Assembly: GCF_036507355.1 (NCBI RefSeq)
Contig: NZ_AP027877.1
Reading direction: 5' to 3' (one strand)
Source of the DNA: Escherichia coli
Lineage (GTDB): Bacteria > Pseudomonadota > Gammaproteobacteria > Enterobacterales > Enterobacteriaceae
DNA length: 64,000 nucleotides
Of this stretch, positions 1-64,000 are shown piece by piece; position 1 is the first letter of the stretch; every line of letters starts with the position of its first letter. The notes under the pieces are model-generated. The model made no database searches and was not told the DNA's origin. It worked only from the letters and a program-made list of their open reading frames with translations. The position numbers were made by a program, and so were the translations under genes.

Positions 1-128
1 CATTGCCAAACGCCGAGGCAAAAATCACCCGCCTGCCACTAGGCTTTTTCTTCACACTCACGCTTTCATTTACGATCGCCGTCATTCCATGTTCCTTGCC
101 ATAAAGAGTTGTTGTGTTGTTTTTTTAT

Positions 129-1295
129 TTATTGCAGCCAGGCTTCTACCAGTGCGCCCCAGTAGCTGCTTGCCGGGATCAGACTTGCATCGTTGAAGTC
201 GTAACCCGGGTTATGCACCATGCAGGAACCTTCCCCGACATCGCCATTACCGAATAACAGGAAACCGCCTTTGGGTTGGGCTTCCAGCATGAAAGAGAAA
301 TCCTCACTGCCCATCAGGGGCTTGATGCCAAACTCGGCCCGATCTTCACCAAACGTTTTACACGCCACCTGCCAGGCGAAGCGCGCCATCTCCTCGTCAT
401 TCACTAATACCGGTGTACCGTTAACATGCGTAACCTCAGCCGTAGCACCAAAGCTGGCAGCCTGGGCCTGTGCCAAAGCAGGAATACGGGTCAGAAGAAG
501 TTGTCGGGTATCGCGGCTAAGAGAGCGGACGCTGATTTTCATCTCAGCACTGTCAGGAATGACGTTAGCCGCCTCCCCTGCAACAATGCTGCCAACGGTA
601 ATTACCGCCGCTTCCAGCGGATCGACATTGCGTGACACAATGCTTTGTAATGCGGTGGTGATATGTGCGGCAACCAGCACCGGATCGATGGCTTTGTGCG
701 GGATCGCACCGTGTCCGCCACAACCACGAACCGTAATATGGAACTGATCCATTGACGCCATCAGTGCCCCTGGCTGGAAATAAAACTTACCCACCGGCAG
801 ACCGGGCATGTTATGCATGCCGAAAATGACATCGCAGGGGAAACGATCAAAAAGCCCCTCTTTAACCATGATCTCACCGCCGTTAATCATCTCTTCCGCA
901 GGCTGGAAGATAAGACGTAACGTGCCGTTAAAACGGCGGGTTTCGGCAAAATAACGCGCGGCCCCCAGCAGTATGGTGGTATGCCCGTCATGCCCGCAGG
1001 CGTGCATTAAACCAGGATGTTTACTGGCCCAGGGCTTGCCACTATTTTCATAAATCGGCAACGCATCCATATCCGCCCGCAGGCCAATACTTTTCTCTCC
1101 GTCGCCCACTTTTAACGTGGCTACCACGCCGGTTGTCGCCAGCCCTTGCTCAACCTTATAGCCCCACTGGCGCAGCTTTTCCGCAACCAAAGCACTGGTT
1201 TTAAATTCTTGTAATCCCAGCTCCGGGTTTTCGTGGATCTGATGGCGGATCTCACGCAGTTCTTCCTCAAACCCTCGAATATAGTGTTCGATCAT
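129..1295 (-). CDS. M20D-family amidohydrolase (hippurate hydrolase / aminoacylase-like)
   Basis: 388-aa ORF with MHACGHDGHT metal-binding motif typical of M20D peptidases; divergent from sthA where K-12 has fabR. Confidence 0.8.
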   Translation of the reverse strand: MIEHYIRGFEEELREIRHQIHENPELGLQEFKTSALVAEKLRQWGYKVEQGLATTGVVATLKVGDGEKSIGLRADMDALPIYENSGKPWASKHPGLMHACGHDGHTTILLGAARYFAETRRFNGTLRLIFQPAEEMINGGEIMVKEGLFDRFPCDVIFGMHNMPGLPVGKFYFQPGALMASMDQFHITVRGCGGHGAIPHKAIDPVLVAAHITTALQSIVSRNVDPLEAAVITVGSIVAGEAANVIPDSAEMKISVRSLSRDTRQLLLTRIPALAQAQAASFGATAEVTHVNGTPVLVNDEEMARFAWQVACKTFGEDRAEFGIKPLMGSEDFSFMLEAQPKGGFLLFGNGDVGEGSCMVHNPGYDFNDASLIPASSYWGALVEAWLQ

Positions 1296-1624
1296 CGGCT
1301 ATTCCTTTATTCACTTATAAACAGGCTAATTAACGGATTTTATTGATGGTATAAATACAAATAACCCATCAATATAAAATATTTATATGTTTGTTTTATA
1401 AGAAGATTTCATAAAGACAATAACAAAAAAGCACGCTTCGGCAAGATAAAACTATCAGCCATAATAAAAAGCGATTAATAGTGAATAAATGTGTTAAGAA
1501 GGAGGCAGACAAAGCAAAGGCCGCTCACGCTATAGCCAGATTAATGACGGGGATCAATTGGCTTACCCGCGATAAAATGTTACCATTCTGTTGCTTTTAT
1601 GTATAAGAACAGGTAAGCCCTACC

Positions 1625-3025
1625 ATGCCACATTCCTACGATTACGATGCCATAGTAATAGGTTCCGGCCCCGGCGGCGAAGGCGCTGCAATGGGCCTGG
1701 TTAAGCAAGGTGCGCGCGTCGCAGTTATCGAGCGTTATCAAAATGTTGGCGGCGGTTGCACCCACTGGGGCACCATCCCGTCGAAAGCTCTCCGTCACGC
1801 CGTCAGCCGCATTATAGAATTCAATCAAAACCCACTATACAGCGACCATTCCCGACTGCTCCGCTCTTCTTTTGCCGATATCCTTAACCATGCCGATAAC
1901 GTGATTAATCAACAAACGCGCATGCGTCAGGGATTTTACGAACGTAATCACTGTGAAATATTGCAGGGGAACGCTCGCTTTGTTGACGAGCATACGTTGG
2001 CGCTGGATTGCCCGGACGGCAGCGTTGAAACACTAACCGCTGAAAAATTTGTTATTGCCTGCGGCTCTCGTCCATATCATCCAACAGATGTTGATTTCAC
2101 CCATCCACGCATTTACGACAGCGACTCAATTCTCAGCATGCACCACGAACCGCGCCATGTACTTATCTATGGTGCTGGAGTGATCGGCTGTGAATATGCG
2201 TCGATCTTCCGCGGTATGGATGTAAAAGTGGATCTGATCAACACCCGCGATCGCCTGCTGGCATTTCTCGATCAAGAGATGTCAGATTCTCTCTCCTATC
2301 ACTTCTGGAACAGTGGCGTAGTGATTCGTCACAACGAAGAGTACGAGAAGATCGAAGGCTGTGACGACGGTGTAATCATGCATCTGAAGTCGGGTAAAAA
2401 ACTGAAAGCCGACTGTCTGCTCTATGCCAACGGCCGCACCGGTAATACCGATTCGCTGGCATTACAGAACATTGGGCTGGAAACTGACAGTCGCGGACAG
2501 CTGAAGGTCAACAGCATGTATCAGACCGCACAGCCGCACGTTTACGCGGTGGGCGACGTGATTGGTTATCCGAGCCTGGCATCAGCGGCCTATGACCAGG
2601 GGCGCATTGCCGCGCAGGCGCTGGTAAAAGGCGAAGCCACCGCACATCTGATTGAAGATATCCCTACCGGCATTTACACCATCCCGGAAATCAGCTCTGT
2701 GGGCAAAACCGAACAGCAGCTGACCGCGATGAAAGTGCCATATGAAGTGGGCCGCGCCCAGTTCAAACATCTGGCACGTGCACAAATCGTCGGCATGAAC
2801 GTGGGCACGCTGAAAATTTTGTTCCATCGGGAAACAAAAGAGATTCTGGGCATTCACTGCTTTGGCGAGCGCGCTGCCGAAATTATTCATATCGGTCAGG
2901 CGATTATGGAACAGAAAGGTGGCGGCAACACTATTGAGTACTTCGTCAACACCACCTTTAACTACCCGACGATGGCGGAAGCCTATCGGGTAGCTGCGTT
3001 AAACGGTTTAAACCGCCTGTTTTAA
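1625..3025 (+). CDS. sthA: soluble pyridine nucleotide transhydrogenase
   Basis: 466-aa ORF, N-terminal FAD-binding GSGPGG motif, recalled SthA sequence, synteny with oxyR. Confidence 0.95.
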
Positions 3026-3925
3026 CACTTTATCGAAATGGCCATCCATTCTTGCGCGGATGGCCTCTGCCAGCTGCTCATAGCGGCTGCGCAGCGGTGA
3101 GCCAGGACGATAAACCAGGCCAATAGTGCGGCGTGGTTCCGGCTTAATGCACGGCAGATAAACAACCCCATCGCGTTTGCGCTCCGGCGGCACAGCCAGC
3201 GCAGGCAGTAAAGTGATCCCGCTACCTGCCGCCACCATGTTGCGCAGAGTTTCCAGGCTGGTCGCGCGGAAGTGTGTATCTTCATCCGCCCCGGCTTCAA
3301 AACAGAAACCCATTGCCTGATCGCGCAAACAGTGACCATCTTCCAGCATCAGCAGTTTTTCCCCAGCCAGATCGGCCATCGGTACGCATTCGCGGTTCGC
3401 CCACGGGTGGTCTTCATAGATAGCCAGCAACATTGGCTCATCAAACAACGGCACTTCAATGAATGCTTCGCTCTCTTTCACCAGCGCGAGGATCACGCAA
3501 TCGAGTTTGCCGCTGTCCAGTTGCGCCAGTAACTGGTGGGTCTGTGCTTCATGCAGATACATTTCCAGCTTTGGAAAGGTCTGGTGCAGCATCGGGATAA
3601 TATGCGGTAGCAGGTACGGTCCAACCGTGGGAATCAAACCAATATGCAGCGGTCCGGACATCGTCTCGCCCTGCTGGCTTGCCATCTCTTTAAGGACTTT
3701 CACCTCACGCAGCACGGTACGCGCCTGATCCACCAGCAGCATTCCCGCCTGGGTGAACAACACTTTACGGCTGGTCCGCTCCAGCAACATCACGCCCAGC
3801 TCATCTTCCAGCTTACGAATTTGCCCGCTAAGCGTCGGCTGGCTAACGTGGCAGGAATCTGCCGCACGCCGAAAATGGCGGTGTTCAGCCAATGCCACCA
3901 GGTACTCAAGATCACGAATATTCAT
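3008..3925 (-). CDS. oxyR: LysR-family oxidative stress regulator OxyR
   Basis: 305 aa from MNIRDLEYL; LysR HTH; convergent with sthA, overlapping its 3' end by 18 bp. Confidence 0.95.
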
Positions 3926-4020
3926 TATCCATCCTCCATCGCCACGATAGTTCATGGCGATAGGTAGAATAGCAATGAACGATTATCCCTATCAAGCATT
4001 CTGACTGATAATTGCTCACA

Positions 4021-4137
4021 GAAACGGAGCGGCACCTCTTTTAACCCTTGAAGTCACTGCCCGTTTCGAGAGTTTCTCAACTCGAATAACTAAAGCCAAC
4101 GTGAACTTTTGCGGATCTCCAGGATCCGCTTTTTTTT
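4021..4137 (+). ncRNA. oxyS: OxyS small regulatory RNA
   Basis: Sequence GAAACGGAGCGGCACCTCTTTTAACCC... matches recalled OxyS; divergent from oxyR; ends in GC hairpin plus T-run (4111-4137). Confidence 0.85.
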
Positions 4138-4191
4138 GCCATAAAAAAGCCCGGCGATAAGCCAGGCTCAAATTTGTACATATAAATGTTC

Positions 4192-5565
4192 TTACCCCAA
4201 CCGCGCCCTTGCAAAAGCAATCGCCTGCGCCACCTGCTGCGGTGAGACGCCGCCTTTTGCCGCACGCTTGTCGAGGCACGATTGCAGCGACAAAATCGGA
4301 TAGACATCTTCGCCAATCACCGGGCTGAATTTCTGCAACTCGTCGAGCGGCAGTTCTTCCAGCGGTTTGCCCTGACGAATGGCTTCCACCACCGCTTCAC
4401 CAACAATATGGTGCGCCTCGCGGAAAGGTACGCCTTTCGCCACCAGGTAATCCGCCAGTTCGGTGGCGTTGGCGTAACCCTGCTGAGCCGCTTCCTGGCA
4501 ACGTGGACGTTTCACCTGGATGCCGTCCAGCACCAGCGCCGCCATATGCAGGCAGTCCAGCCAGGTATCGAGCGCGTCGAACAGACCTTCTTTGTCTTCC
4601 TGCATATCTTTGTTGTAAGCCAGCGGCAAACCTTTCAGCGTCATCATCATGCCGGTTAACGCGCCCTGCACCCGACCGCATTTACCGCGAATCAGCTCCA
4701 GCGCATCCGGGTTTTTCTTCTGCGGCATTAATGATGAACCGGAAGTCACGCGGTCAGAAAGCTCCACAAACCCCGCTTCGCCGGTGTTAAAGAAAATCAG
4801 ATCTTCAGCAAAACGCGACAGATGCACCATGCCGATAGCGGCAGCCGACAGCAGTTCCAGCACGTGGTCACGGTCAGAAACGCTGTCGAGACTGTTACGG
4901 GTCGCTGAAGCAAAGCCCAGCCAGCCAGCTAACTGTTCACGGTCGATCTCATAAGCCGTTCCCGCCAGCGCGCCACAGCCTAACGGACTGACATCCAGAC
5001 GCTTAAGCGCATCCTGCAAACGGCTTTCATCACGCGCCAGCATCTCAACATAGGCCAGGCACCAGTGCGCGAACGTCACCGGCTGGGCGCGTTGCAGGTG
5101 AGTGTAACCTGGCATGACCGCGTCCTGATTGTTTTGTGCGGTTTCCACCAGCGCCGATTGCAGCTGTCGGTTAGCCGTCAGTAACTCGCTAACGGTATCT
5201 TTGCACCACAGTTTCAGGTCAGTCGCTACCTGATCATTACGACTACGCCCGGTATGCAGCTTTTTGCCTAACTGGCCCACTTTGTCGATCAGTTTCCCTT
5301 CCACCCAGCTATGGATATCTTCGGCGTCGCTTTCAAGGATTTGTTGTGGCCTGGCGCGAACATCTTCCAGCAGCACGTTCAGCGCCTCTTCCAGTTGCGC
5401 CTGCTCTTCTGCGGTTAACACGCCGACCGTTACCAGGGCTTTGGACCAGGCCACAGAGCCAACAATATCCTGCTCCGCCAGACGGTAATCAAAGCGCAGT
5501 GAGTCGTTGAATTGTTTGAACCGTTGATCTGCTGCCTGGGTAAAACGCCCGCCCCAAAGTGCCAT
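4192..5565 (-). CDS. argH: argininosuccinate lyase
   Basis: 457-aa ORF, recalled ArgH sequence, argCBH synteny. Confidence 0.95.
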
Positions 5566-7567: not shown

Positions 7568-8719
7568 ATGAAAAACAAATTACCGCCATTTATCGAGATT
7601 TACCGTGCTCTGATTGCCACACCTTCAATAAGCGCCACGGAAGAGGCACTCGATCAAAGCAATGCAGATTTAATCACTCTGCTGGCGGACTGGTTTAAAG
7701 ATTTAGGCTTCAATGTGGAAGTGCAGCCTGTGCCAGGAACTCGCAACAAATTTAATATGCTGGCAAGTACCGGACAGGGGGCTGGCGGCTTGTTGCTGGC
7801 GGGGCATACCGATACAGTGCCATTTGATGACGGTCGCTGGACGCGCGATCCGTTTACACTGACGGAGCATGACGGCAAGCTTTACGGCTTAGGCACCGCC
7901 GACATGAAAGGCTTTTTTGCGTTTATCCTTGATGCGCTACGCGATGTCGACGTCACGAAACTGAAAAAACCGCTCTACATTCTGGCGACTGCTGATGAAG
8001 AAACCAGTATGGCCGGAGCGCGTTATTTTGCCGAAACTACCGCCCTGCGCCCGGATTGCGCCATCATTGGCGAACCGACGTCACTACAACCGGTACGCGC
8101 ACATAAAGGTCATATCTCTAACGCCATCCGTATTCAGGGCCAGTCGGGGCACTCCAGCGATCCAGCACGCGGAGTTAACGCTATCGAACTAATGCACGAC
8201 GCCATCGGGCATATTTTGCAATTGCGCGATAACCTGAAAGAACGTTATCACTACGAAGCGTTTACCGTGCCATACCCTACGCTCAACCTCGGGCATATTC
8301 ACGGTGGCGACGCTTCTAACCGTATTTGCGCTTGCTGTGAGTTGCATATGGATATTCGTCCGCTGCCTGGCATGACACTCAATGAACTTAATGGTTTGCT
8401 CAACGATGCATTGGCTCCGGTGAGCGAACGCTGGCCGGGTCGTCTGACGGTCGACGAGCTGCATCCGCCGATCCCTGGCTATGAATGCCCACCGAATCAT
8501 CAACTGGTTGAAGTGGTTGAGAAATTGCTCGGAGCAAAGACCGAAGTGGTGAATTACTGTACCGAAGCGCCGTTTATTCAAACGTTATGCCCGACGCTGG
8601 TTCTGGGGCCGGGTTCAATCAATCAAGCCCATCAGCCTGATGAATATCTGGAGACGAGGTTTCTCAAGCCCACCCGCGAACTGATCACCCAGGTGATTCA
8701 CCATTTTTGCTGGCATTAA
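7568..8719 (+). CDS. argE: acetylornithine deacetylase
   Basis: 383 aa from [12 protein letters not shown]; M20 peptidase; divergent from argC. Confidence 0.9.
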
Positions 8720-8722
8720 AAC

Positions 8723-8947
8723 GTAGGCCGGATAAGGCGCTCGCGCCGCATCCGGCGCTGTTGCCAAACTCCAGTGCCGCAATAATGTCGGATGCGATGC
8801 TTGCGCATCTTATCCGACCTACAGTGACTCAAACGATGCCCAACCGTAGGCCGGATAAGGCGCTCGCGCCGCATCCGGCACTGTTGCCAAACTCCAGTGC
8901 CGCAATAATGTCGGATGCGATACTTGCGCATCTTATCCGACCTACAC
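8723..8947. repeat. tandem REP/BIME-type palindromic units (about 120-bp unit, two copies)
   Basis: Near-identical units containing GCCGGATAAGGCGCTCGCGCCGCATCCGGC; intergenic between argE and ppc. Confidence 0.85.
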
Positions 8948-29690: not shown

Positions 29691-30026
29691 GGAAAAGCCG
29701 AAGGGCGTCAACCGAAAAATGACCAATGATGGTGAGGAAAAATCAGGGAAGATGAATTTTCTTCATCTGTATATGGGAGTAGATAGGTTCTCTCGCATTA
29801 TCGCGTCGTGAAGTAATGAATAAATGCTTAAGCCATCGGCTGGAAATTTATTTAAATAAGAGTTAATTAATATTCACGACGGTGTTAGCTGAACACTTAT
29901 TTAAATAAAACAAATAGATACCATAATTTGCATTCATTACTGCATGTTTATTATTTGAACTACTTCAAACTATTAATAATTTTTCAAAAATTATGTTGCA
30001 GAGCAATTATGTATCCCCCACGATAA

Positions 30027-30054
30027 GTAGAACGTTCTACTAGAACGTTCTACT
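30027..30054. promoter_or_regulatory. tandem palindromic operator candidates GTAGAACGTTCTAC x2
   Basis: Two adjacent copies of a 14-bp palindrome with central AACGTT (LacI-family operator style) about 55-80 bp upstream of the PTS gene; coordinates +/-1. Confidence 0.6.
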
Positions 30055-30108
30055 TATACAAAAAAGACTAATTCGCGCAGCTTTATGCGCTATTCGGGGG
30101 AAATCAGC

Positions 30109-31434
30109 ATGAGTCTGATGTCGAGTTTCGTGAAGTCACTTTCTAAATTATCGATGATTGGTCGCGCCCTAATGCTACCAATTTCGCTTCTGCCTGCCGC
30201 GGGGTTGTTACTCGCGTTCGGCGATAAATTCCATTTGCCGTTGATGATGAATGCGGGCGGCATTATTTTTGATAACTTGCCGATGCTTTTTGCTATCGGT
30301 TCCGCCGTAGGGCTGGCTTCTGAATCGGGAATTGCGGCGTTATCCGCAGCCGTTTCCGTTTTTGTCACCAATATCACCATCAGCACCGTACTTAGCATTA
30401 CGCCAGAAATGGCCGGGCAAGGCGGCAAATACGCGATGGTGGTGGGGATCCCAACACTGCAAATGGGCGTTTTTGGCGGCCTGATATGCGGGATTCTGGC
30501 GGCGTGGTGTTACAACCGTTTTCATACAATGCAATTGCCAGAATTCCTTGGTTTTTTCTCCGGAAAACGCTTTGTGGCTATCGCGACGGCTTTTCTCTCC
30601 TTCATTCTTGGCTTGTCACTGCCTTATGTCTGGCAACACATTCAGTCAGGAATCGATGCGTTATCGGTTATCGTTAATGGTAACAACCAGGCAGCATCAA
30701 CCTTTATTTTTGGTGTAACTGAACGGGCGCTCATTCCGCTTGGCCTGCACCACATCTGGTATCCATCGTTTTGGTATTCTTTTGGGGATTACACTACCCA
30801 TGCCGGGCAAATGATTCACGGCGATCAGACGATTTGGTTCAAGATGTTGGAAGAAGGGGTGAAATCATTTAGCAGCGACAGTTATCATGACGCTGGTAAA
30901 TTTATGCAAGGTGAATTCCCACTGATGCTGTTTGCCCTGCCTGCGGCGTGCCTGGCGATGTATCTGCTGCATGCACATATTGCCAAATCCTTCTCTGCGG
31001 GGCTTATTGACTATATTTCGTTTGGTATCCTGCCATCCTTTAATGGCTACGAAACCAACTTCCTGAGCGCCATTATCGTCGGCGTGCCAATGGCGGTGAT
31101 CTACTACTTCACCTTCCGCTTTGTTATTCGTCGTTTTGATGTAAAAACGCCTGGTCGCACCGAAACTACGGTTAGCGCTAATGATAAATCCGATGACGAG
31201 CTGGCAACAGAAATCATCACGCTGCTTGGCGGTCAGCAAAACGTTAAATCGGTAGGTTCCTGCATCACGCGTTTACGTCTGGAAGTCTCTGATAAAGAAG
31301 CGGTGGATCAGGATGGTCTGAATAATATTGGCGCCCGTGGCGTGGTTTTTGTCGGCGATAACGGCATTCAGGTAATTTTTGGCGCGCGAGCGCAATTTAT
31401 CGCGCAAACCATGTCGACGATGATCGGTAAATAG
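30109..31434 (+). CDS. PTS EIICB component, glucose/maltose family
   Basis: EIIC domain with FGVTERALIPLGLHHIWY motif and C-terminal EIIB with CITRLR phosphocysteine motif; start at internal ATG with GGGGGA SD (track ORF starts 30085). Confidence 0.85.
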   Translation: MSLMSSFVKSLSKLSMIGRALMLPISLLPAAGLLLAFGDKFHLPLMMNAGGIIFDNLPMLFAIGSAVGLASESGIAALSAAVSVFVTNITISTVLSITPEMAGQGGKYAMVVGIPTLQMGVFGGLICGILAAWCYNRFHTMQLPEFLGFFSGKRFVAIATAFLSFILGLSLPYVWQHIQSGIDALSVIVNGNNQAASTFIFGVTERALIPLGLHHIWYPSFWYSFGDYTTHAGQMIHGDQTIWFKMLEEGVKSFSSDSYHDAGKFMQGEFPLMLFALPAACLAMYLLHAHIAKSFSAGLIDYISFGILPSFNGYETNFLSAIIVGVPMAVIYYFTFRFVIRRFDVKTPGRTETTVSANDKSDDELATEIITLLGGQQNVKSVGSCITRLRLEVSDKEAVDQDGLNNIGARGVVFVGDNGIQVIFGARAQFIAQTMSTMIGK

Positions 31435-31515
31435 CCTTAAGATTACTCGATGTCAGAGGTTCTGGTCCCTGACCAGAACCTTCTTGCTATTTAAAGAATC
31501 AACGTTGTTCAGGGA

Positions 31516-32538
31516 GTGAGTTTGAAGAAAGTCAGCATAATTGATGTTGCTAAAAGAGCCGGAGTTTCCGTCTCTACCGTGTCGCTAGTGCTGCGCCAGA
31601 AAGGGAAAATCTCAGAGGCGACCATCGGGAAAGTTCATGCTGCTATTGACGAACTGGGCTACGTGCATAATGTTGCCGCCGCCAATTTACGTTCCCACAC
31701 TTCAAATCTTATCGGACTGATTTTACGTGATTTTAGCGATAGCTTTTCCATCAAAGTGATGGCTAGCATTGTTCAGGAACTGGAAGCCAAGGGCTATATG
31801 GTATTCCTTGGGCAACCACAGAACGAACATGAACATCTTGAACGTTGTTTACTTTCCTTCAAGCAACAAGGTGTTGCCGGAGTGATTTATCTGGCTTCCG
31901 ATGCGCATCGTGAAACCCTACCCACACTAATCCGCCAGTGTTCGCTTCCCCTTGTCGTCGCGTCACAAACGCCCATCAAAGATGAGTGCAACCTGGTGTT
32001 GCGTGACAACCAGCAGGCAGCAAGCCTTGCCACACGTTATTTAATTGAGCGCGGCCATCGTTACATTGCCTATCTCGGTGGCAGAGAAAGCGATCTTATC
32101 CGTCAGCAGCGACTGGTTGGTTTTCGCCAGACCCTGGCAAAATTTGGCATTGCCTGCCGTGACGAGTTCACGCCAGCCTGTGACGATGACACCTGGGCCG
32201 CCAGCATGGCAACGCGCCAGTTGCTGGAAAATAACAACGCCATTACCGCCCTGCTCTGCCATTCGCCCGACGCTATGATTGGCGGTATCAACGGCATACA
32301 TCAGGTGGGGCGCACCGTTGGGAAAGACGTCTTTCTGACCCAGCAGGTAGCATTAATTGGTTTTGAAGATATGTTGCATATCAACCTGACCTCTCCTGTT
32401 TTCACCTATGTATCTTCCGCCAGTGAAGAAACCGGACGCCAGGCAGCGACCCTGATGATTCGCAAATTAAAAGACCAGGAATTGCAAACCCAAAGAATTG
32501 CGCTTTCCGGGGAACTGGTGGTGCGGGAATCGGCGTAA
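31516..32538 (+). CDS. LacI-family transcriptional regulator (MalI-like)
   Basis: N-terminal HTH DVAKRAGVSVSTVSLVL and periplasmic-binding-protein-like effector domain; GTG/TTG start. Confidence 0.85.
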   Translation: MSLKKVSIIDVAKRAGVSVSTVSLVLRQKGKISEATIGKVHAAIDELGYVHNVAAANLRSHTSNLIGLILRDFSDSFSIKVMASIVQELEAKGYMVFLGQPQNEHEHLERCLLSFKQQGVAGVIYLASDAHRETLPTLIRQCSLPLVVASQTPIKDECNLVLRDNQQAASLATRYLIERGHRYIAYLGGRESDLIRQQRLVGFRQTLAKFGIACRDEFTPACDDDTWAASMATRQLLENNNAITALLCHSPDAMIGGINGIHQVGRTVGKDVFLTQQVALIGFEDMLHINLTSPVFTYVSSASEETGRQAATLMIRKLKDQELQTQRIALSGELVVRESA

Positions 32539-32611
32539 TACACATGCCGAATGAGATGTACGTCGACATCGTCATCCGGCAATAAGGTGTAAACCAACTC
32601 AATAACTACTT

Positions 32612-33124
32612 TTATTTGATATCTTTCACGCGCATACCGTTGAGCTGTTCATCCGTGATGGCGTTACCCGCTTTGAAGTAATCAACCACGGCGTGATAAA
32701 CGTAATAACCGCCCGTTGTGTTGCGCGCTTTCCCCTCGATAAATGCGGTAAAGCCATCACCGCCATCAGCAAGGAAACTCTGAGTAGCAATATGGTAAAC
32801 CGTCGCATCTTCAATCGGTTTGCCATTTAGAGTCAACGTGATTACGCGCTGACCAACCGGCTTACTGCTGTCGTACTTCATTTCCAGGCCTTTCGATACC
32901 TGTAAAACGCCATTACTTAAACTTGCGCCGTGTTCCATCAAACTGCGTAATTGTTTCCCCGAGAGATCCATCGTCACCAGTTCGTTGGGGAACGGGAAGG
33001 TACTGATGACGCCGCCCATCGTAATCGCCCCTGCGGGGATCTCATTGCTAATACCGCCAGAGTTGGTTAACGCCAATTGGGTATTTTTACCCGCCGCTAC
33101 CAATAAAACCGTTAGATGGTATGT
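32612..33124 (-). pseudogene. 3' remnant of a 5'-nucleotidase / cyclic-nucleotide phosphodiesterase (C-terminal domain only)
   Basis: Open frame covers only a C-terminal substrate-binding-like domain; in-frame stop immediately upstream, no metallophosphatase domain. Confidence 0.55.
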
Positions 33125-33279
33125 TCATTAACGGGCGGAAATAGCAACAAAGCCAAAATACTCTCTTTAGCAACCAGCAGAGAATTTATCTACTGGCTAC
33201 ATAAACAGGCAGAATTTACTCACAGCGCCCCGCTTTCCGCAGGGCGCGTTACGCAAATACTGCTTTCTCTGGCCCAGGA

Positions 33280-60719: not shown

Positions 60720-60818
60720 AAGACAGGGATGGTGTCACAAAAAAGCACCTAACCTGATGATATAAATGGATTTATGTCAACCGCTGTCCACATAGCGTCC
60801 ACATCGTTCAGCGTCCGT

Positions 60819-61331
60819 TTAATCGGACGCTTTTAAATTTTTATTTTTCCCAGCAGAAAAATTAGCTTTCCCGCTGTTTTGCAACTCAACAAGAGGAGAT
60901 AACCGTCGGTAAACAGCCAAAAGTATCTTTAACTGAACCAGTTCATCTGCCCCCGATAGTTGAACCAAGTTTTTACGTTGTTCTTCACTAAGTGCCATCA
61001 CAGATTCAAGTGATTTAACTGCGTCAGAAACAAGTTCAATCTCTTTAATTTGATTCTGTATACGCAGCTTCTCTGATTTCAACTTTGCCCATTCTCTTTG
61101 TCGATATGTACGCATCACCTGATCGTAAACTTTGTTGGCAGCCAGAATACTTCCACCAACAGCAGTAACTAACTCAGCAATCTGCCAAGAGATATCAATA
61201 AGAGCAGACAATTCAATAAAGCCAGGAGAGGCATACTGAATTTTTTTCACTACAGGACGTAAATCTGGTGGAGTCGCACTGTAAGCCCCTCTAAAAAAGT
61301 TCACCACACTGTGCCCACCCTCCCAAGGCAT
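60819..61331 (-). CDS. hypothetical protein (170 aa; predicted coiled-coil C-terminal half, no signal peptide)
   Basis: AT-rich ORF with AGAGGA SD 9 nt upstream of ATG; own terminator; IS lies about 35 bp upstream of start. Confidence 0.6.
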   Translation of the reverse strand: MPWEGGHSVVNFFRGAYSATPPDLRPVVKKIQYASPGFIELSALIDISWQIAELVTAVGGSILAANKVYDQVMRTYRQREWAKLKSEKLRIQNQIKEIELVSDAVKSLESVMALSEEQRKNLVQLSGADELVQLKILLAVYRRLSPLVELQNSGKANFSAGKNKNLKASD

Positions 61332-61365
61332 TGTTGAATATCCTCTTGATCCTCCTTTTAGGCGC

Positions 61366-62431
61366 TGAATTTACAATCCAAGTGCAACAAAAAAAGAAGT
61401 ACTCATCAACTAGAATATAATTTTGTTTCCACACAAAAACCACTTCCAAATGATGAGTACTTCCTACCGACATCTTACAATAAACGAGCGAGAAAAGATA
61501 ATGATTTTACTCGCACAGGGCAAAAAACAAGCAGAAATTGCCAAAGCACTGGGACGTAGCTCCAGCACCATTTCTCGCGAGCTGAAACGACACGCTCTAG
61601 AAAGCTACAGTGCAACGAACGCACAAAACAGCTATTTGAAGCATCGTCAAAATAGCAAAGCACAGCGCAAATTAGAGCAGCCTGAATATTTCAATTTGGT
61701 GCAAGAAAAGTTTCTGACAGAAAACTGGTCGCCCGAACAAATCAGCGCACGATTAAAATTGGAAAAATCTGAATTATCCATTAGTTATTCAACCATTTAT
61801 CGTGGTATTTATTCAGGGTTGTTTGATATAGGCGAACGCAAAGCCAGTCGCAAACTGCGCCACAAAGGCAAAACACGGCATACAAAAAATCATCATGAAA
61901 AACGTGGCAAAATTCAGATATCCAACCATTTGAACGACCGTCCCATTTCGGCGCAAAATCGCAGTCGCTTTGGACATTGGGAAGCCGATACCGTACTGGG
62001 TAAAGCGGGTGGAGCTTGTTTGCTGACGCTGACGGAACGCAAAAGTCGTTTTGAGTTGGTGAAGAAAATTCCTGCCAAAAAAGCCGAAGCAGTCCAAAAA
62101 GCCATGATTGAATTGCTGGATTCACATATATTGCGGTCAATTACGCCAGACCGTGGTAAAGAATTTGCCCAACATCGTTTGGTAACAGAAGCACTGGGTG
62201 TAGAATTTTACTTCCCCGAGCCGCATCAACCGTGGACACGGGGAACGAATGAAAATACAAATGGGTTACTTCGTGAATACTTTCCGAAGCACCAAGACAT
62301 CAATCAGTGGAGCGAAGTTGATATTCAACAGGTGATCAATAAACTGAATTTACGACCACGTAAATGTTTAGGTTGGAAAACACCTTATGAAGTTTACTTC
62401 AAAAAATCGTTGCACTTGGTTTGACAATTCA
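61366..62431 (+). mobile_element. IS30-family insertion sequence (about 1.07 kb; ISApl1-like by size)
   Basis: Imperfect terminal inverted repeats TGAATTTACAATCCAAGTGCAAC (left) and GTTGCACTTGGTTTGACAATTCA (right) flanking a single transposase ORF; boundaries +/-3 bp. Confidence 0.75.
61423..62424 (+). CDS. IS30-family DDE transposase
   Basis: N-terminal HTH (TINEREKIMILLAQGKKQAEIAKALGRSSSTISRELKRH), GHWEADTV and NENTNGLLR motifs; first codon of track ORF is TTG, true start probably internal. Confidence 0.85.
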   Translation: MFPHKNHFQMMSTSYRHLTINEREKIMILLAQGKKQAEIAKALGRSSSTISRELKRHALESYSATNAQNSYLKHRQNSKAQRKLEQPEYFNLVQEKFLTENWSPEQISARLKLEKSELSISYSTIYRGIYSGLFDIGERKASRKLRHKGKTRHTKNHHEKRGKIQISNHLNDRPISAQNRSRFGHWEADTVLGKAGGACLLTLTERKSRFELVKKIPAKKAEAVQKAMIELLDSHILRSITPDRGKEFAQHRLVTEALGVEFYFPEPHQPWTRGTNENTNGLLREYFPKHQDINQWSEVDIQQVINKLNLRPRKCLGWKTPYEVYFKKSLHLV

Positions 62432-62433
62432 AG

Positions 62434-62532
62434 GCCATAAAAAAAACCATATAGCTGCAAATACTCTTTCGTTAAGACCGCGAAATCAGCTAACTCCCAA
62501 CGATTATCAAGCTCAATTATAACTTTTTCCAT
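62434..62532 (-). other. short ORF (33 codons, MEKVIIELDNRWELADF...) with GGTGG SD that runs into the IS right end; possible truncated gene 5' end
   Basis: ATG at 62532 on minus strand, open until the IS boundary. Confidence 0.3.
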
Positions 62533-62636
62533 TTTCCACCAACCTGTCCAACTTTAAAGATTGACTTTTAAGTATATGATAAACATAGTTTATTAAACGT
62601 GATCCACTACTTTTAATGAAGAATATTCCCCAAAAC

Positions 62637-62663
62637 AGAAAGCCCCTCGACTGAGGGGCTTTC
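62637..62663. terminator. bidirectional hairpin terminator
   Basis: AAAGCCCCTC GACT GAGGGGCTTT with T-rich flanks on both strands. Confidence 0.6.
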
Positions 62664-62672
62664 TGTTTGTAA

Positions 62673-62771
62673 TTACATCCACATAATTTGCTGCCCTGAC
62701 GGCAACGGGTGCGGTCTTACGGCGTGGACTTCTCCCGGCTTGTCCAGGGTAATGACATTTTCTTTGTTCAT
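62673..62771 (-). CDS. small ORF (32 aa, MNKENVITLDKPGEVHAVRPHPLPSGQQIMWM)
   Basis: ATG start, ends just before the hairpin terminator; no recognisable homology. Confidence 0.25.
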   Translation of the reverse strand: MNKENVITLDKPGEVHAVRPHPLPSGQQIMWM

Positions 62772-62931
62772 GGTTTTCTCACTTCTGAATCAGGGTTAAC
62801 CGGCCAGCCAGGCTGACCGGATGAAAATCACAGGCCGATATTGCGGCGGTGTTGCTCCAGCCGGTCGACGCCGTTCACCTTCTCAATCATGTTGATGGTG
62901 TCAATTTCGACCAGCTCCTTACCGTCCATCG

Positions 62932-63138
62932 TCAGCCGGAAATAACCCATTTTTCACCGGCACGAGCCTTCGGTTTGCAAGGATCACGCAATTCAATAAT
63001 TGGTAATTTATTTGCCTTCACCATTTCACTGACGGCTGTCTTTGGCTTCCCTAATAAATCAGCAAATTTATCCACATGAACCGCATCAAGCGGATACTGA
63101 ATCACATAATTTTCAGCGTCCATATATGGTACCCTCAT
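62932..63138 (-). CDS. excisionase-like / small winged-helix DNA-binding protein (putative Xis)
   Basis: 68-aa ORF divergent from the HTH-integrase pair; FADLLGKPKTAVSEMVKANKLPIIEL segment resembles excisionase-type winged helix; family assignment tentative. Confidence 0.45.
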   Translation of the reverse strand: MRVPYMDAENYVIQYPLDAVHVDKFADLLGKPKTAVSEMVKANKLPIIELRDPCKPKARAGEKWVISG

Positions 63139-63198
63139 AGGATCCAGCCCTTTCTAAACCACTCAAAACCGTTTAGACGCTGGTTTATTCTCAAATCA

Positions 63199-63250
63199 AT
63201 GGAACCTATATAGGTTCCAGTTTTGAGGGAATTTAGTCCCTATATAGGCA
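63199..63250. promoter_or_regulatory. operator-like palindromes (CCTATATAGG core, two copies) in divergent promoter region
   Basis: GGAACCTATATAGGTTCC perfect 18-bp palindrome (63201-63218) and CCCTATATAGG (63238-63248), plus degenerate CCCTCATAGG at 63132-63141 overlapping the xis-like start codon. Confidence 0.6.
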
Positions 63251-63259
63251 CCATGTCAA

Positions 63260-63553
63260 ATGAAATTAAGCGAAAAGATTAAGGCCTTGCGTGAGGCTGA
63301 AGGGCTAAGCCAATCAAAATTCTGTGAAATCATAGAGTTACCGCTAAGCACACTTAAAAAATATGAAGGAGGAAACTTTGAACCCGGTGGCACAGCTTTG
63401 CTAAAAATCACTATGCATCCCACATTCCAAAAATATGCTCTATGGCTTATGACAGATAAAACCGCGCCGGACGCAGGACAAATCGCACCGGCTCTCGCGC
63501 ACATTGGGCCAGAGTCAACAGAGTCCAACCACTCCGAGAAAAGGATTGGATAA
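63260..63553 (+). CDS. XRE-family (Cro/CI-type) HTH transcriptional regulator
   Basis: 97 aa; LSEKIKALREAEGLSQSKFCEIIELPLSTLKKYE is a typical Cro/C1 HTH. Confidence 0.75.
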   Translation: MKLSEKIKALREAEGLSQSKFCEIIELPLSTLKKYEGGNFEPGGTALLKITMHPTFQKYALWLMTDKTAPDAGQIAPALAHIGPESTESNHSEKRIG

Positions 63554-63622
63554 CTCTATATAAAGATTACATTTTCACCATTTGCTACCAAGATGGTGAA
63601 TACAGCGCCGGAGGGCTTTCTT

Positions 63623-64000
63623 ATGGCAATTAAGAAGCTCGATGATGGTCGCTATGAAGTGGACATTAGACCTCGCGGTCGCGACGGAAAACGCATCCGC
63701 AGGAAATTCGAAAGAAAAGCTGAAGCACTAGCATTTGAGCGATACACAATCGCCAATGCCAGTCAGAAAGAATGGGGAGGCCAGCGAGCAGACCGCCGGA
63801 CTTTGAGTGAGTTGCTGGACATCTGGTGGAAATATCACGGGCAAAACCACGAGCATGGAACAAAAGAGTTTAATCATCTACTCAAAACCATCAGCGGCAT
63901 AGGTGATATACCAGTGAACAGGATGAGCAAAAGGGCTTTGATGGATTATCGTTCCATGCGACTACGTGATGGTATCAGTGCCGCAACGATAAACCGTGAC
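63623..64000 (+). CDS. tyrosine-type site-specific integrase, N-terminal part (truncated by window end)
   Basis: GGAGGG SD 8 nt upstream; 126 codons open to window end; MAIKKLDDGRYEVDIRPRGRDGKRIRRKFERKAEALAFE is a typical arm-type DNA-binding N-terminus; not in the ORF track because there is no stop in the window. Confidence 0.75.
   Translation, partial: MAIKKLDDGRYEVDIRPRGRDGKRIRRKFERKAEALAFERYTIANASQKEWGGQRADRRTLSELLDIWWKYHGQNHEHGTKEFNHLLKTISGIGDIPVNRMSKRALMDYRSMRLRDGISAATINRD

Follow-up and report, generated by a model that had tools for sequence, protein, structure and literature searches.

A 2.7-kb M20D amidohydrolase and MFS symporter unit between sthA and fabR of Escherichia coli, very probably ancestral and lost from K-12 by deletion

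Related systems and the earlier record of the locus

Several hydrolases of the M20D family have been characterised, among them YxeP, ILL2, the N-alpha-acyl-glutamine aminoacylase, HmrA and HipO (C. jejuni), and all of them cleave amides formed at the alpha-amino group of amino acids. In E. coli K-12, the abg system (AbgA/AbgB-AbgT) is responsible for the uptake and hydrolysis of p-aminobenzoyl-glutamate. The locus analysed here resembles abg in that the gene of an M20D-type hydrolase lies beside the gene of a putative transporter for an anionic amide. However, AbgT is not an MFS transporter, the abg enzyme is composed of two subunits, the abg genes occupy another locus, and they are accompanied by the LysR regulator AbgR, which is not the case here. 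The structure 3io1 (an 'aminobenzoyl-glutamate utilization protein') was found as a distant match of our M20D protein (E = 2e-35), which indicates a remote relationship.

We analysed a window of 64,000 nucleotides of E. coli chromosomal DNA (contig NZ_AP027877.1 of the assembly GCF_036507355.1), the left edge of which departs from the gene order of K-12. In MG1655, fabR (b3963) is transcribed divergently from sthA (b3962), with 276 bp between the two genes, and this order had been given correctly in the first-pass annotation of the window. In our stretch, the gene divergent from sthA (1625-3025, + strand) encodes instead an M20D amidohydrolase of 388 aa (129-1295, - strand), as the same annotation had recognised.

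The two genes that we describe below have orthologues in CFT073, c4924-c4925, annotated as 'M20 aminoacylase family protein' (C_RS23275) and 'citrate-proton symporter' (C_RS23280), which are located at the same site, between sthA (C_RS23270) and fabR (C_RS23285). CFT073 and strain PE164, which carries a window-like allele, differ by allelic variants only, with dS of 0.16 for the M20 gene and 0.29 for the MFS gene. In a study from 2010, the gene set 'SAC no. 14, c4924-c4926, citrate metabolism' was reported as present in UPEC strains and in E2348/69 and absent from K-12 (PMC2831201). The table of that study scores O157:H7 as lacking c4924-c4926 (PMC2831201); however, contrary to the table, O157:H7 complete genomes do carry both genes of the unit. 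The presence or absence of these genes is an ordinary gene-content polymorphism between E. coli strains, which has already been annotated and published. Our searches of the literature on fabR together with sthA and aminoacylase, as well as on yxeP, returned nothing relevant. A separate report described ECs4893 as a gene specific to 'O157' and as induced when cells enter stationary phase (PMC2241611). Its locus-tag number (argB is ECs4888) hints that it could be a gene of the unit, a hint from numbering alone that we do not count as evidence.

The two genes and their upstream region

The M20D gene is an intact open reading frame on the - strand (129-1295), and its product is the orthologue of CFT073 c4924 / C_RS23275. 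The protein matched the M20D model TIGR01891 ('amidohydrolase') with 358.7 bits, at a cutoff of 153.75, as well as PF01546 (Peptidase_M20; 150.3 bits, cutoff 24.6) and PF07687 (M20_dimer; 48.6 bits, cutoff 21). The M20_dimer match covered residues 184-279 and lay inside the Peptidase_M20 match (residues 72-384), so that the lid domain interrupts the catalytic domain. Residues C100, H102, D103, E134, E135, H161, H195 (in the lid domain) and H361 did not vary among 25 homologues with identities of 47-97%. In this family, C100, H102, E134/E135, H161 and H361 would be expected to provide the metal ligands and the catalytic Glu.

The nearest solved structures were all of N-acyl-amino-acid hydrolases from the same fold family, namely YxeP (1ysj, B. 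subtilis), ILL2 (1xmb, Arabidopsis), the N-alpha-acyl-glutamine aminoacylase (6slf, Corynebacterium) and HmrA (4ewt, S. aureus), with E values from 5e-71 to 5e-64. The conserved M20D motifs could be aligned to YxeP and ILL2, and the motifs HACGHD, PAEE and GMHN together with a C-terminal His are common to our protein and to the group of YxeP, ILL2, 6slf and HmrA. These are matches at the level of the family only, and none of these four hydrolases is orthologous to the protein from the window. The equivalog models within M20D gave scores below their cutoffs, both for CpsA (NF040868; 334.3 bits versus 500) and for DoeB2 (NF038260; 321.5 bits versus 550).

Downstream of the M20D gene, on the same strand, positions 1-85 contain the first 28 codons (MTAIVNESVSVKKKPSGRRVIFASAFGN...) of an MFS metabolite/H+ symporter gene, which is truncated by the edge of the window; this gene start had been overlooked in the first-pass annotation. 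The full-length gene (PE164 L001:10769-12085) encodes a protein of 438 aa, labelled by PGAP as a 'citrate-proton symporter'. Its general membership in the MFS was clear (PF00083, Sugar_tr, 114.9 bits; PF07690, MFS_1, 97.9 bits). The best family matches were the MHS carboxylate/H+ symporters TcuC (tricarballylate), CitA (citrate) and KgtP (alpha-ketoglutarate). Unlike these, the symporter of the window scored below the curated cutoffs, with 323.7 bits versus 443.45 for TIGR00883 (MHS family) and 286.1 bits versus 445 for TcuC (NF011656) as its best NCBIfam matches, and it is paired with an amidohydrolase. Since the symporter gene is paired with an amidohydrolase gene, its substrate may be other than citrate. 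The M20D gene, in turn, had originally been annotated in CFT073 as a 'putative hippuricase' (PMC5956150). As far as can be judged from the sequence, neither 'hippuricase' nor 'citrate-proton symporter' has backing as a name at the equivalog level.

The spacer from the stop codon of the M20D gene to the ATG of the symporter gene (86-128, - strand) was read from the sequence as 43 bp, and it contains a Shine-Dalgarno-like AAGGAA 6 nt 5' of the symporter ATG. Because the gap is only 43 bp long, both genes are on the same strand and no terminator was predicted on the - strand, we read the M20D and symporter genes as a putative single operon, in which both would be co-transcribed. In the scan of positions 1-1800, the sole terminator-like site was found on the + strand (31-44), and the count was no higher than in shuffled sequence. 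Adjacent M20 and MFS genes were also found in ten loci of Burkholderia, Paraburkholderia, Pseudomonas and others. Such a side-by-side recurrence in ten distant loci suggests that the pair may be a functional cassette. A divergent open reading frame with a LysR-type N-terminus, as judged by eye, was noted in at least three of the ten (L047, L006 and L021).

The intergenic region between the M20D gene and sthA (1296-1624) had been described in the first-pass annotation as very AT-rich and 330 bp long. The AT-richness held (G+C of 0.337 versus 0.517 for the whole window, within the lowest 0.5% of all 329-bp windows), whereas the length proved to be 329 bp. The region consists of two parts. The part peculiar to the two-gene unit (1296-1505; G+C of 0.276), which has no counterpart in K-12, is one of the two 210-bp stretches of lowest G+C in the window, and is presumed to be a promoter/regulatory region. 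The part of the K-12 type 5' of sthA (1506-1624, + strand; 119 bp, G+C of 0.445), which is 97.5% identical to K-12, is presumed to contain the sthA promoter and 5' UTR. Across four Escherichia species the whole spacer had no indel and a mean column identity of 97%, which exceeded that of the surrounding coding genes. Within it, 1296-1505 was almost invariant and free of indels in the four species, and the last ~100 bp 5' of the sthA ATG were 100% invariant in E. coli, E. albertii, E. ruysiae and E. whittamii.

The promoter of the operon is presumed to lie within 1296-1505. In positions 1-1800, a sigma-70 consensus scan gave one promoter-like site (1438-1465, + strand), which was within the count obtained for shuffled sequence. 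An ArgR-box or LysR-box in the AT-rich spacer was also considered, and the candidate, the inverted repeat TTGATGG-N16-CCATCAA (1343-1372), was rejected as it was only partly conserved between species. No RNA families were detected within 1-1624 (Rfam, gathering thresholds); the nearest match was OxyS at 4021-4130. In CFT073, overexpression of TosR induced c4924 by 6.6 log2, one of the strongest inductions of any gene, and TosR was predicted by the authors of that study to bind AT-rich DNA and to counteract H-NS and Lrp (PMC5956150). The AT-richness of the region together with the TosR result suggests that nucleoid proteins (H-NS) probably keep the promoter silent under laboratory conditions, and that anti-silencers such as TosR would lift this silencing. 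Only weak hairpins were found between the symporter gene and fabR, so one may speculate that the operon is also transcriptionally coupled to the downstream fabR-yijD.

On the other side of the spacer, sthA (soluble pyridine nucleotide transhydrogenase) was identified with 805.7 bits by NF003585 and by the RefSeq annotation of relatives, and it served as the conserved right-hand anchor of the locus. It is followed by the longest open reading frame containing oxyR (3008-3955, - strand), by OxyS, and by argH (4192-5565, - strand), with argB next.

The place of fabR and the origin of the K-12 arrangement

To obtain presence counts, we used megablast of positions 1-1700 of the window against 5,426 complete E. 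coli genomes. The whole stretch was present in 1,506 of them (roughly 28%), and its annotation there reads 'M20 aminoacylase family protein | citrate-proton symporter | sthA'. The carriers include B2 strains (CFT073, 83972), O157:H7 and O145:H28. The spacer of the K-12 type was found in 3,912 of the 5,426 genomes, and very few of the genomes fall outside these two states. In PE164 the gene order is murI - btuB - trmA - yijD - fabR - symporter - M20, divergent from sthA - oxyR - argH, and CFT073 has the same order (sthA, and divergent from it M20 - symporter - fabR - yijD - trmA). The exact M20 protein of the window was encoded on 29 contigs in the public protein collection. Three of these contigs were fetched, and leftward of the M20 gene fabR (TetR_N), yijD, trmA and btuB were found in all three, and a called MFS gene of 438 aa in two; murI was also observed in the left flank of contigs with this M20 protein. 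One of the three, the closest available assembly (L082, GCA_900608085.1), had one mismatch across positions 1-2373 of the window and 99.46% identity over 8 kb. In its left flank, the symporter gene, fabR, yijD and trmA directly adjoin, and fabR corresponds to the window coordinates -1985 to -1281.

The first-pass annotation had proposed, as one of two alternatives, that fabR was deleted or displaced in this genome, with an effect on the regulation of unsaturated fatty acids. The one observation in favour of such a loss is that fabR is not visible in the window, the left edge of which falls in the symporter gene. However, the junction of the M20D gene with sthA (1,506 complete genomes) is effectively always accompanied by that between the symporter gene and fabR (1,507 of the 5,426), and the three fetched contigs with the identical M20 protein, among them the nearly identical L082, carry fabR leftward; we consider the loss or relocation of fabR highly improbable. 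The same annotation had itself allowed for fabR lying immediately beyond the amidohydrolase in the same orientation, and this is what was found in the relatives, with one additional gene between. Among the complete RefSeq genomes none exceeded 98.8% identity to the window over 24 kb, and the position of fabR in the source genome is taken from relatives. Given that relatives with the M20D-sthA junction also carry the symporter-fabR junction, and that L082 is near-identical, there is a very strong expectation that fabR-yijD would be intact ~1.3 kb left of position 1, on the - strand and in the usual orientation. A further concern was that positions 1296-1624 could be a chimeric join, that is, unrelated DNA joined to sthA by the assembly. 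The abrupt drop in G+C, and nothing else, speaks for such an artefact, whereas the same contiguous sequence occurs in about 1,500 complete genomes, with 98.6-99.2% identity over positions 1-1700 in the best matches listed among the 1,506, and it is collinear and without indels in three other species. The probability of a chimera is, in our opinion, negligible.

We then compared the unit with K-12. The homology is interrupted on the right at 1505/1506, with the similarity to K-12 resuming at 1506, and on the left within the symporter gene, 35 bp short of its 3' end (PE164 L001:10803), so that 2,702 bp of PE164 correspond to 73 bp of K-12. K-12 thus retains, beside fabR, a 35-bp remnant of the symporter gene composed of the stop codon and the last ~11 codons (YVKEPAKELQ*). 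This tail is native to the gene, as homologues from Burkholderia and Pseudomonas (36-45% identity) can be aligned through residues 432-435 of 438. The 73-bp filler of K-12 gave nothing above chance in comparisons with the unit as it occurs in E. coli and E. albertii (blastn-short and global alignment). In E. albertii, E. ruysiae and E. whittamii alike, the order is oxyR - sthA, and divergent from it M20 - MFS - fabR - yijD - trmA - btuB. The nucleotide identity between E. albertii and E. coli was 92.8% for M20 and 88.3% for MFS, and for the neighbouring core genes 91.4% (sthA), 94.3% (fabR), 89.5% (oxyR) and 92.7% (trmA). Across Escherichia species, dS of the two unit genes was 0.35-0.57 versus 0.35-0.49 for sthA, and their dN/dS of 0.03-0.04 (0.03 for M20D) indicated strong purifying selection.

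In the first-pass annotation, the amidohydrolase was alternatively regarded as part of an insertion, the remainder of which would lie left of the window. Additional DNA does extend leftward, as the 2.7-kb unit of two genes; however, its presence would not be due to an insertion, since the K-12 state is better explained as a deletion. A recent horizontal islet, inserted into a K-12-like ancestral spacer between sthA and fabR, could be suspected from the very AT-rich upstream region, from the absence of the unit from 72% of complete E. coli genomes, and from the nearest M20 homologues outside Escherichia, which are betaproteobacterial with at most 63% identity and suggest horizontal transfer at some point. 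On the other hand, the unit occupies the same site in the three sister species, where it has diverged about as much as the core genes beside it, and the remnant in K-12 is genuine. At the borders of the unit only short direct or inverted repeats of chance size were found, and no integrase, transposase or tRNA; no mobility genes are annotated within the 2.7 kb of PE164 and CFT073, which contain the two genes only. The G+C of the unit is also typical of E. coli (0.506 versus 0.517 for the window). Hence the features of a mobile island or insertion element (mobility genes, repeats or a tRNA target, atypical composition) were lacking, and those of an ancestral locus with secondary loss (the same site in sister species, core-like divergence, a remnant) were all present, and we regard a recent insertion as improbable.

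The same site in sister species, the core-like divergence, the native 35-bp tail, the typical G+C and the lack of repeats and mobility genes argue that the ancestor of this part of the genus already had the unit, and that the arrangement of K-12 would be derived from it by a 2.7-kb deletion; the direction of this change rests on four Escherichia species and the 35-bp remnant. It is thus very probable that the left edge of the window cuts an ancestral 2.7-kb operon of an M20D amidohydrolase and an MHS-type MFS symporter, which was lost in K-12 by deletion, with fabR retained. With one genome taken per species, the nearest M20 homologues outside Escherichia were from Silvimonas (63%), and then from Bordetella and Paraburkholderia (58%). 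This distant, betaproteobacterial affinity suggests that the unit probably entered an ancestor of Escherichia by horizontal transfer long ago, from outside Enterobacteriaceae.

Possible function and meaning for Escherichia

The membership of the enzyme in M20D, its invariant residues, the N-acyl hydrolases among its nearest structures, the resemblance of the symporter to carboxylate carriers and the recurrence of the pair all point to a likely function of the unit in taking up and hydrolysing an anionic compound that resembles an N-acyl amino acid. In such a scheme, transcription would start from the promoter in the AT-rich 210 bp upstream, once the silencing that probably prevails in the laboratory had been lifted by TosR-like anti-silencers. 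The anionic amide that the proton symporter would import is probably an N-acyl-L-amino acid or another carboxylate of this kind, and the cytoplasmic di-metal M20D enzyme would then hydrolyse its amide bond, releasing the free amino acid and the carboxylic acid as nutrients. It could even be imagined that the unit is a normally silent system which takes up and hydrolyses one particular N-acyl amino acid or related amide-carboxylate derived from the host (for example from urine or the gut), kept by purifying selection across Escherichia and lost in lineages of the K-12 type. We put this more specific proposal forward as a speculation, which on balance is unlikely to be correct in full.

The apparent break of synteny at sthA indicates neither a loss of fabR nor a problem with the assembly, nor a new kind of element. 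The two genes of the unit are old, having been kept in four Escherichia species under strong purifying selection, and the gene order of K-12, being derived at the sthA-fabR locus, is not a neutral reference there. If the speculation about a host-derived substrate were true, the unit would represent an uncharacterised nutritional trait that separates strains like CFT073 and O157:H7 from strains like K-12.

Conservation of the sthA-M20 spacer

The spacer at 1296-1624, which separates the M20D amidohydrolase gene from the divergent sthA, was more conserved between species within Escherichia than the coding genes that adjoin it. In the alignment across Escherichia species, it had a mean column identity of 97% and no indels, and its final ~100 bp upstream of sthA were invariant in the species compared, while the flanking coding genes showed 88-94% nucleotide identity in comparison to E. 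albertii. We also noticed an inverted repeat, TTGATGG-N16-CCATCAA (1343-1372), within this spacer, which was conserved in part.

Mosaic gene content and variable intergenic sites

We compared the oxyR-argH spacer (3956-4191) with the contig stretches L089:44954-48266, L085:1-1161 and L088:1-1161. Both in the window and in K-12, OxyS alone is located between oxyR and argH, whereas in CFT073 this position holds manD and an MFS transporter gene. In E. ruysiae and E. whittamii, too, an MFS gene adjoins oxyR. Since the M20-MFS unit (the M20D amidohydrolase gene and the MFS symporter gene, between sthA and fabR) has been retained and the manD-MFS pair is absent, the genome of the window is a mosaic.

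The metF-metL interval contains a ~3.5-kb segment (29757-33278) with no counterpart at that site in K-12; it carries a glucose-family PTS IIBC gene (30085-31434, plus strand), a MalI-like regulator of the LacI family (31516-32538, plus strand), and a C-terminal 5'-nucleotidase fragment of 163 aa (32612-33103, minus strand). In CFT073, the same site is occupied by another, larger set, namely a Tsx-like gene, three 5'-nucleotidase genes and one hypothetical gene. Thus, as the contents of the window, K-12 and CFT073 differ there, the metF-metL site is variable from strain to strain.

A ~1.5-kb segment in the rraA-zapB interval (46701-48228), with a low-G+C trough at its left border, is also missing in K-12. 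It carries, on one strand, two ORFs at 46751-47437 (228 aa) and 47470-48186 (238 aa), neither of which gave a match in NCBIfam or Pfam. The argE-ppc spacer (8719-8946) includes a repeated unit of ~105 bp, the copies of which are arranged differently in K-12, as seen from overlapping BLAST pieces; this may represent variation of a putative REP-type intergenic repeat.

At the right end, homology to K-12 stops at K-12 position 4106344, inside the cpxQ RNA gene and just past the end of cpxP. The remaining segment (60737-64000) encodes a 170-aa ORF (60819-61331, minus strand), for which the family search gave no matches, an IS30-family transposase (61423-62424, plus strand) and a small HTH/RstR-like repressor (63260-63553, plus strand), and resembles either an inserted mobile element or the beginning of an island.

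Possible symporter and fabR variation in other strains

In GCA_019081545.1 (contig L083), which encodes an identical M20 protein, the symporter position (L083:11211-12630) had no symporter gene call, and, compared with L082 and L084, two further contigs encoding that protein, the genes downstream of it were offset by 1 bp. The missing call together with the offset suggests that the symporter of this strain is a frameshifted pseudogene. For the cattle strain E. coli RM13322 (NZ_CP050498.1, match H115), just bases 294-404 of the 1,001-bp fabR-symporter junction query were aligned. The fabR 5' region of RM13322 may be disrupted or rearranged; if so, this strain would represent a genuine change at the fabR locus, in contrast to the window.
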